Source: Escherichia coli
Lineage (GTDB): Bacteria; Pseudomonadota; Gammaproteobacteria; Enterobacterales; Enterobacteriaceae
Reading direction: 5' to 3' (one strand)
Length of the DNA stretch: 64,000 bases
NCBI RefSeq assembly: GCF_024223415.1
Contig: NZ_CP100500.1
Shown here: in pieces, positions 15,761-17,696 of the stretch
Layout: every line of letters starts with the position of its first letter
Numbering within the stretch: the stretch's first letter is position 1
Notes under the pieces: model-generated
Database searches by the model: none
Told to the model about the DNA's origin: nothing
What the model saw: only the letters and a program-made list of their open reading frames with translations
Made by a program: the position numbers and the translations under genes

Positions 15761-16042
15761 ATGGCTACCCTCACCACTGGCATGGTTCTTCTTCGCTGGC
15801 AACTTCTTAGTGCCGTAATGATGTTTCTGGCCAGCACGCTCAACATCCGTTTTCGTCGGTCTGATTATGTCGGGCTTGCAGTGATCAGCAGCGGTCTGGG
15901 CGTGGTTTCCGCCTGCTGGTTCGCGATGGGGTTGCTTGGCATCACAATGGCGGATATCACCGCCATCTGGCACAACATCGAGTCGGTGATGATAGAAGAG
16001 ATGAATCAGACACCGCCACAATGGCCAATGATTTTGACCTGA
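15761..16042 (+). CDS. yjcB: Small inner-membrane protein YjcB
   Basis: 93-aa hydrophobic ORF (MATLTTGMVLLRWQLL...) inside the longer track ORF 15662..16042. Confidence 0.8.
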   Translation: MATLTTGMVLLRWQLLSAVMMFLASTLNIRFRRSDYVGLAVISSGLGVVSACWFAMGLLGITMADITAIWHNIESVMIEEMNQTPPQWPMILT

Positions 16043-16312
16043 TTTCACTTTCTTGACTTTTATCCCTTCACAAGCGGTCGATGAATAGCTTCCTCGGCCG
16101 CCCTATCATCACATATCGCACTTTCTTTTAATCAACGCTTGAAGGTGTTGTACGCTTAGCATCTTCACTATCTTCGCCACCTCCTTGCTGAATTTTATAC
16201 AAATGAGCAATTTTTGATAGTTCAAAAATATGAGTAAGGCTAGGATAAAAAGAAATAAATTGCACTACCTAACGACACCGTAATATTTTCAATAATTATC
16301 AAGGAGAAGATC

Positions 16313-16789
16313 GTGCCGATAATATTTAGTCCAAATACATTAAAAATGGAACAATATCATGGCGACAGGGTTAAAATGGAGAAATACAATTCAAATCCAT
16401 TTCAATTCAATGCAGTTTATTATACAAATATTGATGATTTTAAAAACCTCTTAAAGGACCTTATTAATACCATGACGAATGGGAAAGTCGAGTTTAATTC
16501 TGAGCAATTATCTAAACTCATGGCAGAAATAACCTCTTTCGAGTCCAATCTTGATGGAACCCCCAAAGATATAAATTTTATCTCTCAAAATGAACATCTA
16601 CGCCAAACTGTATCCATCAGACAAGATGGGCTATGCACGAAAATAACACTCATTGTAGAAGAAACCCATTTTGATATAGACCATGGCGATATCTTACATG
16701 GAAAAAAATGGAGTGAAACAAGAGTGCTGCCTGAAGAATTAAACATGGCTATTGTTGTTGAAAACCTTAGAAACTTACCACACAGTTAA
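16313..16789 (+). CDS. Hypothetical protein, A+T-rich orphan ORF (158 codons, GTG start)
   Basis: ORF preceded by a strong RBS AAGGAG 6 nt upstream of GTG 16313; composition much more A+T-rich than flanking yjcB and ssb; no motif I recognise. Confidence 0.55.
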   Translation: MPIIFSPNTLKMEQYHGDRVKMEKYNSNPFQFNAVYYTNIDDFKNLLKDLINTMTNGKVEFNSEQLSKLMAEITSFESNLDGTPKDINFISQNEHLRQTVSIRQDGLCTKITLIVEETHFDIDHGDILHGKKWSETRVLPEELNMAIVVENLRNLPHS

Positions 16790-16990
16790 ACAAAGTTGAG
16801 CAACATGAAATAGAGAGATTATAGAAGATATAAACCGGTACAAATTGCAAAATCAGATATTTTGTAAAATCCGGTATAATAAATTAATGAGAGGAACAAT
16901 CCTTGACTATTTCAGGAGCCGAAATTCATTTTCGACTCCTGGACGCATATGTTTCGCGTTGAGAGATCTCAACACAAAAGATGCAGATTC

Positions 16991-17527
16991 TTAGAACGGA
17001 ATATCGTCATCAAAGTCCATCGGCGGCTCGTTAGACGGCGCTGCCGGAGCGGACTGCTGCGGGCGAGACTGCGCGCCGCCGCTGAACTGATTGCCACCCT
17101 GCGGCTGCTGAGGCTGACCCCAACCGCCCTGCGGCTGACCACCACCGATATTGCCACCTGCAGGAGCGCCACCACCCTGACGACCACCCAGCATCTGCAT
17201 AGTGCCGCCAACGTTCACCACAACTTCTGTGGTGTAGCGATCCTGACCAGATTGATCGGTCCATTTACGGGTACGCAGCTGACCTTCGATATAAACCTGA
17301 GAACCTTTACGCAGATATTCGCTGGCCACTTCTGCCAGTTTGCCGAACAGCACAACGCGGTGCCATTCAGTCTGCTCTTTCATCTCGCCGGTCGCTTTAT
17401 CACGCCAGGATTCGGAAGTAGCCAGCGTAATGTTGGCAACTGCGCCACCATTTGGCATGTAGCGTACTTCCGGGTCCTGACCCAGATTACCAACGAGAAT
17501 AACCTTGTTTACGCCTCTGCTGGCCAT
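16991..17527 (-). CDS. ssb: Single-stranded DNA-binding protein
   Basis: 178-aa ORF with OB-fold N-terminus, Gly/Gln-rich linker and acidic tail DFDDDIPF. Confidence 0.98.
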
Positions 17528-17680: not shown

Positions 17681-17696
17681 CTGTATATTCATTCAG
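17681..17696. promoter_or_regulatory. LexA (SOS) box shared by divergent ssb/uvrA promoters (CTGTATATTCATTCAG)
   Basis: CTGT-N8-ACAG-type SOS box in the ssb-uvrA intergenic region. Confidence 0.8.

Follow-up and report, generated by a model that had tools for sequence, protein, structure and literature searches.

A rare A+T-rich replacement of the yjcB–ssb spacer in Escherichia coli carries a probable orphan gene without relatives in the databases searched

What is the A+T-rich open reading frame (ORF) that lies between yjcB and ssb in some strains of Escherichia coli, and is it a gene? We addressed this question in a stretch of 64,000 nucleotides (the window) from contig NZ_CP100500.1 of the E. 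coli assembly GCF_024223415.1, in which yjcB (plus strand) and ssb (minus strand) converge on a spacer holding one long ORF. A previous reading of the letters of the window (hereafter, the sequence-only reading) had described a spacer of about 950 bp and an ORF of 158 codons at 16313..16789, with a GTG start codon and AAGGAG at a distance of 6 nt; we measured the spacer at 948 bp (16043–16990), and all of these statements about the sequence were correct. The spacer is derived, rare and confined to a single chromosomal site, and its ORF is coding and has no relatives in any database searched; from these observations we infer the remainder of the account given below. As a whole, we favor the reading, at a probability of roughly 0.6, that a genuine, weakly constrained and lineage-restricted orphan gene lies on a foreign block of DNA, and that its product is a putative non-enzymatic binding protein.

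We computed the GC contents of the ORF (0.338) and the rest of the spacer (0.30–0.40, with values across the block falling to 0.29–0.36) and compared them with those of yjcB (0.53), ssb (0.57) and the whole window (0.50), and the values agree with the earlier description of the ORF as A+T-rich relative to the flanking core genes. In DNA of the spacer composition, stop codons are expected at intervals of approximately 14 codons; an open stretch of 158 codons has a probability of about 7e-6 per frame, and this length was reached in none of 2000 shuffled spacers. That is, the 158-codon open stretch is not a product of chance in this composition.

We determined the state of the yjcB–ssb junction in 5,426 complete E. 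coli genomes, a presence/absence comparison that the sequence-only reading had proposed. An intact short junction was found in 4,956 genomes (91%), and the long spacer was found in 22 (0.4%), in each case as a single chromosomal copy and always between yjcB and ssb; the remaining genomes (approximately 8%) contained something else at this junction. K-12 was negative. The ORF is accordingly strain-variable, as had been proposed, and does not belong to the core genes that K-12 shares with all E. coli. Identity to the window spacer was at least 99% in 19 of the 22 copies, 92.6% in N3 and 86–87% in 06-00048 and GF4-3. In every case examined, including draft genomes and metagenome contigs, the locus was bordered by soxR-soxS-pdeC-yjcB and, across the spacer, by ssb-uvrA. 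The left arm of the spacer (16043–16242) was found only in the same 22 genomes as the orphan spacer.

The sequence-only reading had estimated the K-12 spacer to be shorter, and it was measured at 98 bp. No alignable sequence was found between the long spacer and the 98-bp spacer of K-12; the difference between the window and K-12 starts directly after the stop codon of yjcB and extends to the stop codon of ssb, which is TAA in the window and TGA in K-12. The K-12 spacer harbors a canonical intrinsic terminator 3' of yjcB (GAAGCCTCC-ATAAC-GGAGGCTTC-T6), which is lost in the window. These results indicate that the long spacer has fully taken the place of the K-12 spacer and was not inserted into it, so that the earlier statement of an ORF inserted between yjcB and ssb is right as to the location and wrong as to the manner.

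We further read the spacers of outgroup species by means of a YjcB scan of species-representative genomes. E. albertii, E. whittamii and three other divergent Escherichia lineages have a K-12-type spacer (78–94% identity, sometimes with extra sequence), and nothing similar to the long spacer was found in any of these five lineages. Because all five outgroup lineages carry the K-12-type spacer, the short spacer is ancestral and the long spacer derived within E. coli; together with the foreign composition of the block, this supports the earlier view that the ORF was acquired rather than ancestral. In E. albertii (L028 3780-3966) and another outgroup (L029 3780-3920), about 140–185 bp of extra sequence lies between yjcB and the K-12-type spacer. 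This sequence is unrelated to the window spacer, and the yjcB side of the junction is therefore also variable.

Raised divergence at the junctions, as a signature of a foreign donor in the flanks, was considered and rejected: the flanks of carriers differ from K-12 by an ordinary value of approximately 1.7%, with no sharp rise toward the junctions. A sequence with at least 99% identity to window positions 15830–16042 (the 3' half of yjcB) was found in 35 of 5,416 genomes, approximately 21 of which carry the long spacer; among the other 14 sharers of this haplotype, at least three (88-3493, GF3-3 and SWYHX138.261ft) have the short spacer. This linkage to a rare yjcB haplotype fits a single origin of the block on that haplotype, and we infer that the block may later have been spread or lost by homologous recombination. 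The guinea-fowl isolate GF3-3 (L058 417-2003), which combines the rare yjcB haplotype with the short spacer, has a pdeC gene that is interrupted by a stop codon and annotated as a pseudogene. The K-12-type spacer was also encountered in a 9.5-kb contig labelled Flavobacterium paronense CECT 8460 (NZ_JAUFQN010000013.1), which contains yjcB, a 98-bp spacer 100% identical to that of K-12 and a gene for a 100% identical SSB protein; this contig is almost certainly E. coli contamination of the Flavobacterium assembly.

The features of the spacer and its flanks to which the following analyses refer are listed here.

15761..16042, plus strand: yjcB (93 aa), the core gene on the left, with the rare haplotype linked to the orphan spacer in its 3' half.
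16043..16990, no strand assigned: the derived, A+T-rich yjcB–ssb spacer of 948 bp, which replaces the ancestral 98-bp spacer and its intrinsic terminator.
16043..16242, no strand assigned: the non-coding left arm, with a difference of at most 1.5% among all three allele groups.
16074..16101, plus strand: a GC-rich hairpin 3' of yjcB without a T-run, at the position of the canonical terminator of K-12.
16301..16306, plus strand: the ribosome-binding site AAGGAG, 6 bases 5' of the start codon; it is kept in the 06-00048 allele and reads AAGGAA in N3.
16313..16789, plus strand: the orphan ORF (158 aa, GTG start codon), whose product is identical to the RefSeq entry WP_001121509.1, 'hypothetical protein'.
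16313..16474, plus strand: codons 1–54, the hypervariable, unconstrained N-terminal part (ratio of nonsynonymous to synonymous substitution rates, dN/dS, of approximately 1; predicted local distance difference test, pLDDT, below 50).
16401..16410, plus strand: (TTCAA)2, the short, stable form of a pentanucleotide tract, of which 3–17 copies set the reading frame in N3-type alleles.
16475..16777, plus strand: codons 55–155, the conserved protein core, under moderate purifying selection (dN/dS of 0.33–0.49).
16835..16874, no strand assigned: a hairpin 3' of the ORF.
16913..16941, no strand assigned: a strong hairpin (CAGGAGCCGAAATTCATTTTCGACTCCTG) within the conserved right arm, where the ORF and ssb converge, without a T-run on either strand.
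16991..17527, minus strand: ssb, the core gene on the right; integrative defence islands of other strains use its last codons for attachment.

To determine whether the ORF is maintained as a gene, we compared its alleles. The reading frame is open in three allele groups despite synonymous divergence (dS) of 0.16–0.5. Within codons 55–155, dN/dS was 0.33–0.49 at dS values of 0.16–0.24, and nonsynonymous changes were depleted (pairwise Fisher tests, P = 0.02–0.05). The position of the start codon is kept across alleles as GTG or ATG, as is the ribosome-binding site, and a 12-nt insertion or deletion near the start codon is in frame. The composition of the codon positions is likewise coding-like, with GC contents of 0.43, 0.27 and 0.31 at the first, second and third positions (GC1 > GC3 > GC2) and 65% purine at the first position. 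On these comparisons of alleles, the orphan ORF behaves as a genuine gene that is weakly constrained and has been inactivated in some strains.

We examined how the divergence between allele groups is distributed along the block, and found that it is strongly uneven. Between allele groups, the difference is no more than 1.5% in the two arms (16043–16242 and 16876–16925) and 20–40% in the segment containing the 5' untranslated region and the first 55 or so codons (16243–16478); the rest of the ORF is intermediate. The center of the block has diverged beyond E. coli core genes, though the block is found in no other species; candidate explanations for this pattern are recurrent import from a donor that has not been sampled, rapid evolution of this segment, or homogenization of the arms by recombination. 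Intermediate N-termini (P0039 and P0049) demonstrate recombination between alleles.

A (TTCAA)n tract is present in the N-terminal coding region of N3-type alleles, and its copy number differs between isolates. In-frame tracts were observed with n = 2 (N3) and n = 11 (a protein of 173 aa), and n = 5 is deduced to be in frame because a protein of 163 aa exceeds the 158-aa form by five residues. Out-of-frame tracts were observed with n = 3 (several independent samples), 6, 9 and 17 (the last with a small deletion), and the genomes with out-of-frame tracts are those annotated with a 48-aa fragment and a 105-aa ORF. Among the sister alleles, the tract was noted at 4014-4072 of L007 and in L016, L017-L022, L024 and L025. 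Such a tract may be the signature of slipped-strand switching and, equally, of tract expansion in a gene under little constraint. A phase-variable contingency gene would have a tract of several repeat units, and the window allele has (TTCAA)2 only; since the window allele contains two units and the 06-00048 group none, a switch would not be a property of the window.

We searched for relatives of the 158-aa product at several levels. An indexed search of 5.8 G proteins returned six clusters, all from Escherichia coli, and a phmmer scan of 1.84 G representatives returned nothing beyond the family except P0007, a false positive caused by tetratricopeptide repeats, and P0008, a frameshift fragment. 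No relative was found in a scan of 100,044 species-representative genomes of GTDB with the family alignment as the query, in a peptide-pattern scan of IMG/VR, or in tblastn searches against phage and plasmid records. The best matches were not significant in Pfam-A (Sec3_CC, E = 0.029), PHROGs (E = 0.045), PADLOC (PbeC, E = 0.0057, a partial match over 67 residues of a 661-position profile) or the sequences of the PDB (E = 0.18), and NCBIfam gave no match. Literature searches by protein accession found no mention. These results indicate that the orphan protein is restricted to E. coli and without relatives in any database searched.

The sequence-only reading had recognized no motif in the protein, and likewise no known motif or family matches it; in particular, no catalytic, DNA-binding, nucleotide-binding or membrane domain was recognized with Pfam or in the analysis of protein properties. 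The protein is acidic, hydrophilic and soluble by its calculated properties (isoelectric point of 5.3, net charge of –7 and grand average of hydropathicity of –0.52). The full-length AlphaFold2 model was of low confidence (pLDDT of 54–61); for residues 33–158 modelled with 16 family sequences, the pLDDT was 69.9 and the predicted template modelling score 0.61. The topology of this second model is α-α-β4-α, that is, a pair of helices, an antiparallel meander of four strands and a helix at the C-terminus. A Foldseek search against AFDB50 matched only the protein's own family, and matches to an NTF2-like fold, which had been obtained with a poorer model, faded with the better one. Folds of the β4-α type that bind nucleic acids (Whirly, PUR-α, MRP1/2 and PC4) are named for comparison. 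The homology and structure checks that had been suggested for the 158-aa product hence ended in an E. coli-only family with no convincing fold match overall.

How such a gene might be expressed was considered next to its neighbors. A consensus scan upstream of the ORF found no good sigma-70 promoter, and a scan of the block found no intrinsic-terminator consensus. As the terminator of yjcB is gone and no good sigma-70 promoter was found, the ORF is probably transcribed by read-through from yjcB, silenced by H-NS, or both; binding of H-NS is expected on a 0.75-kb stretch at approximately 33% GC. The sequence-only reading had placed the ORF next to the SOS-regulated promoters of ssb and uvrA, and this proved mistaken: the ORF and ssb are convergent, and it is the 3' end of ssb that the ORF adjoins. 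SOS control was rejected, since no CTGT-N8-ACAG site exists within 16043–16990 even with one mismatch allowed. The nearest LexA-box-like site (CTGTATATTCATTCAG, 17681–17696) is located beyond ssb, in the ssb–uvrA intergenic region, and is unrelated to the orphan gene; we take it to be the known, expected SOS operator.

Both flanks fold more stably than shuffled sequences (z = –2.9 and –3.8), and an Rfam scan at E ≤ 1, the left arm included, gave no match. The conserved left arm also contains a short ORF on the minus strand (16109–16225), of 38 aa from a TTG codon or 19 aa from a GTG codon; a perfect AAGGAGG precedes the GTG, and the peptide is basic and not hydrophobic.

The site itself has been described repeatedly. 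The yjcB–ssb junction is integration hotspot 39 of a survey of E. coli defence islands, in which it was occupied in 38 of 1,292 genomes (Hochhauser et al. 2023, PMC10121019, supplementary file 2), and an 18-kb 'yjcB-ssb defense island' with Detocs and a dGTPase was reported at the same site (ISME J 2024, PMC11728103). Salmonella pathogenicity island 4 (SPI-4) of Salmonella Typhimurium is likewise located between ssb and yjcB (PMC12607715), which marks the junction as an insertion point of long standing among enteric bacteria.

In our comparison, AR_0162 (L014 20344-32342) and 167 (L015) carry an element of 12 kb whose genes include two tyrosine recombinases, Avs4 and a member of the AbiGi family. 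In AR_0162, the 98-bp spacer of K-12 is intact on the yjcB side; next come a second copy of the ssb end (TCAGAACGG) and TTCACATAAC. Because the spacer is intact and the end of ssb is duplicated, the integration target of this element is the last codons of ssb. A type I restriction island with a YgjP-like gene occupies the same point, after TTAAAATGG and TTCACATAAA, in one carrier of the 06-00048-type orphan (L013 4583-7246). The junction of both the AR_0162 element and the type I restriction island reads T(C/T)A(G/A)AA(C/T)GG followed by TTCACATAA.

We compared the orphan block with these islands and with other known systems. Like the islands of hotspot 39, the block is strain-variable, A+T-rich accessory DNA at the same intergenic site. 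However, the islands are 12–18 kb in length, contain tyrosine recombinases and named systems (Detocs, dGTPase, Avs4, AbiGi and type I restriction-modification), and enter the 3' end of ssb while keeping the K-12 spacer, whereas the block consists of 0.95 kb with one gene and takes the place of that spacer. The 948-bp block, with its single ORF, encodes no integrase or recombinase; neither a duplicated attachment core nor the ancestral spacer is present in the window; and no defence system is recognized in the block at a significant PADLOC score. The possibility that the block is a remnant of the ssb island family was rejected by a BLAST comparison with the AR_0162 island, which found no similarity. 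By these comparisons, the orphan block is located in hotspot 39 but is not an island of that kind. The earlier suggestion of an immunity, anti-restriction or defence module was apt as to the site, which is a defence hotspot, and was not borne out by a significant match in PADLOC or any other library. SPI-4 (siiA-F) shares the location between ssb and yjcB but is a 24-kb island encoding a type I secretion system and a giant adhesin; given that no relative was found in any database searched, it presumably encodes no relative of the orphan.

The N3-type tract (2–17 copies of a pentanucleotide that toggles the frame in the 5' coding region) resembles those of the simple-sequence-repeat contingency genes of Haemophilus, Neisseria and Moraxella. 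Nevertheless, the window allele has two copies and the 06-00048 allele none, and the product is not evidently a surface or restriction-modification protein; repeat-driven switching is uncommon in E. coli. The protein also resembles the immunity proteins of colicins, contact-dependent inhibition (CDI) and type VI secretion systems, as well as anti-restriction proteins, in being small, acidic, cytoplasmic, strain-variable, without a catalytic motif or relatives, and encoded on A+T-rich DNA. This likeness is by class only, however, and no toxin, cdi, rhs or type VI secretion gene is located nearby and no immunity family is matched. DNA mimics such as Ocr or ArdA have a net charge far removed from the –7 calculated here. 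A further conserved ORF of at least 50 aa that could be a toxin–antitoxin or toxin–immunity partner was looked for in the block and not found; the neighbors of the block are the core genes yjcB and ssb.

In the reading that we favor, a foreign, A+T-rich block of 948 bp has replaced the 98-bp spacer in a minority haplotype of E. coli, and would then have spread, or been kept, along with the neighboring part of yjcB. Its ORF is very probably a real accessory gene; hotspots of E. coli commonly contain orphan genes. The product would be small, acidic and located in the cytoplasm. Its C-terminal α/β domain (about residues 36–158) may be a non-enzymatic binder of macromolecules, of the immunity, inhibitor or anti-defence type that is common among the cargo of variable hotspots, and the first 55 or so residues may form a dispensable, freely drifting tail. 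The binder or immunity-like function is a tentative part of this reading and taken by itself is doubtful.

Several observations weigh against the favored reading, and most of these are shared with its main rival, namely that the block is a decaying remnant of a former island or other mobile DNA, in which the ORF is idle and drifting toward a pseudogene. Codons 1–54 evolve at dN/dS of approximately 1 and are modelled as disordered, and even beyond them the ratio falls only to 0.33–0.49, which is weak constraint; no promoter consensus precedes the ORF; and inactivated or altered alleles exist, so that decay in related strains, which the sequence-only reading had named as evidence against itself, was found in part. 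These alleles include the out-of-frame TTCAA tracts in several independent samples, an IS1A element at the 5' end of the orphan ORF in GPEC1446 (L060, approximately 810–1590), which leaves an annotated remainder of 147 aa, and a 1-base insertion just 5' of the stop codon in the 06-00048 group (approximately 3780–3796 in L002/L005). This +1 frameshift, present throughout the group, exchanges the last four residues for a Lys/Glu-rich tail of 39 residues (193 aa in total). The rarity of the block (0.4% of genomes) and its position in an island hotspot would also suit a remnant. However, the frame has stayed open through dS of 0.16–0.5 in three allele groups, in DNA of 33% GC where stop codons arise easily; nonsynonymous changes are significantly depleted in the C-terminal part and the start codon and ribosome-binding site are conserved; and the block shows no integrase fragment, attachment-site duplicate or similarity to the islands at the site. 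We therefore regard a remnant as unlikely, although it deserves the most weight among the rivals.

The same data bear on other explanations. A single-gene module for anti-phage defence or abortive infection, kept at low frequency and, in one allele family, switched by repeats on account of its cost, would account for the location in hotspot 39 next to the attachment site of the Avs4/AbiGi and type I restriction-modification islands, for the A+T-rich, strain-variable and hypervariable sequence with its tract states (n = 2, 3, 5, 6, 9, 11 and 17), and for the weak PADLOC match to PbeC (E = 0.006). That match, however, is not significant, covers 67 of 661 profile positions and involves a compositionally biased protein; the product has no enzymatic, nucleotide-binding or membrane domain and is smaller than nearly all known single-gene systems; and the window allele, with two TTCAA units, has no switch. 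Such a module is improbable. A broader form of the idea, rather improbable as well, is an E. coli-specific contingency gene, that is, a one-gene cassette of hotspot 39 whose α/β domain would be protective at the interface with phages and mobile elements, maybe by acting on single-stranded DNA or SSB, and which would be varied by the hypervariable 5' region and, in one family, by the (TTCAA)n switch. It is also conceivable that the ORF is incidental and that the selected element is non-coding (terminators or hairpins serving yjcB and ssb, or a small RNA or mini-ORF in the arms), given that the arms are far more conserved than the ORF, that the flanks fold stably and that AAGGAGG precedes the short minus-strand ORF of the left arm. 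Nevertheless, neither Rfam at E ≤ 1 nor the intrinsic-terminator consensus found an element of this kind, the conservation of the arms is about that of the flanking core DNA and could be explained by recombination, and a 158-codon open frame with dN/dS below 1 would be left unexplained; we consider this very unlikely. Finally, a de novo origin of the gene within E. coli, out of A+T-rich DNA that was non-coding, would agree with the lack of homologues in the databases searched, the weak constraint and the disordered, neutrally evolving N-terminus. However, the surrounding DNA is foreign to the locus and the short spacer of the outgroups is unrelated, hence no candidate for a non-coding precursor is seen, and a compact α/β domain is predicted for the C-terminal part, which makes this explanation the least probable of all.

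If the ORF is functional, its protein defines a new family without relatives among approximately 15 billion predicted proteins, at a site that E. coli and Salmonella have repeatedly used for defence and virulence cargo. If the protein is without function, the ORF is one more hypothetical accessory gene, of value mainly as a lineage marker. The locus is in addition a clean natural case of the complete replacement of an intergenic spacer, at low frequency and with deeply diverged alleles, and the coding repeat of the sister alleles, which changes the frame between isolates, is relevant to the question of phase variation by repeats in E. coli.

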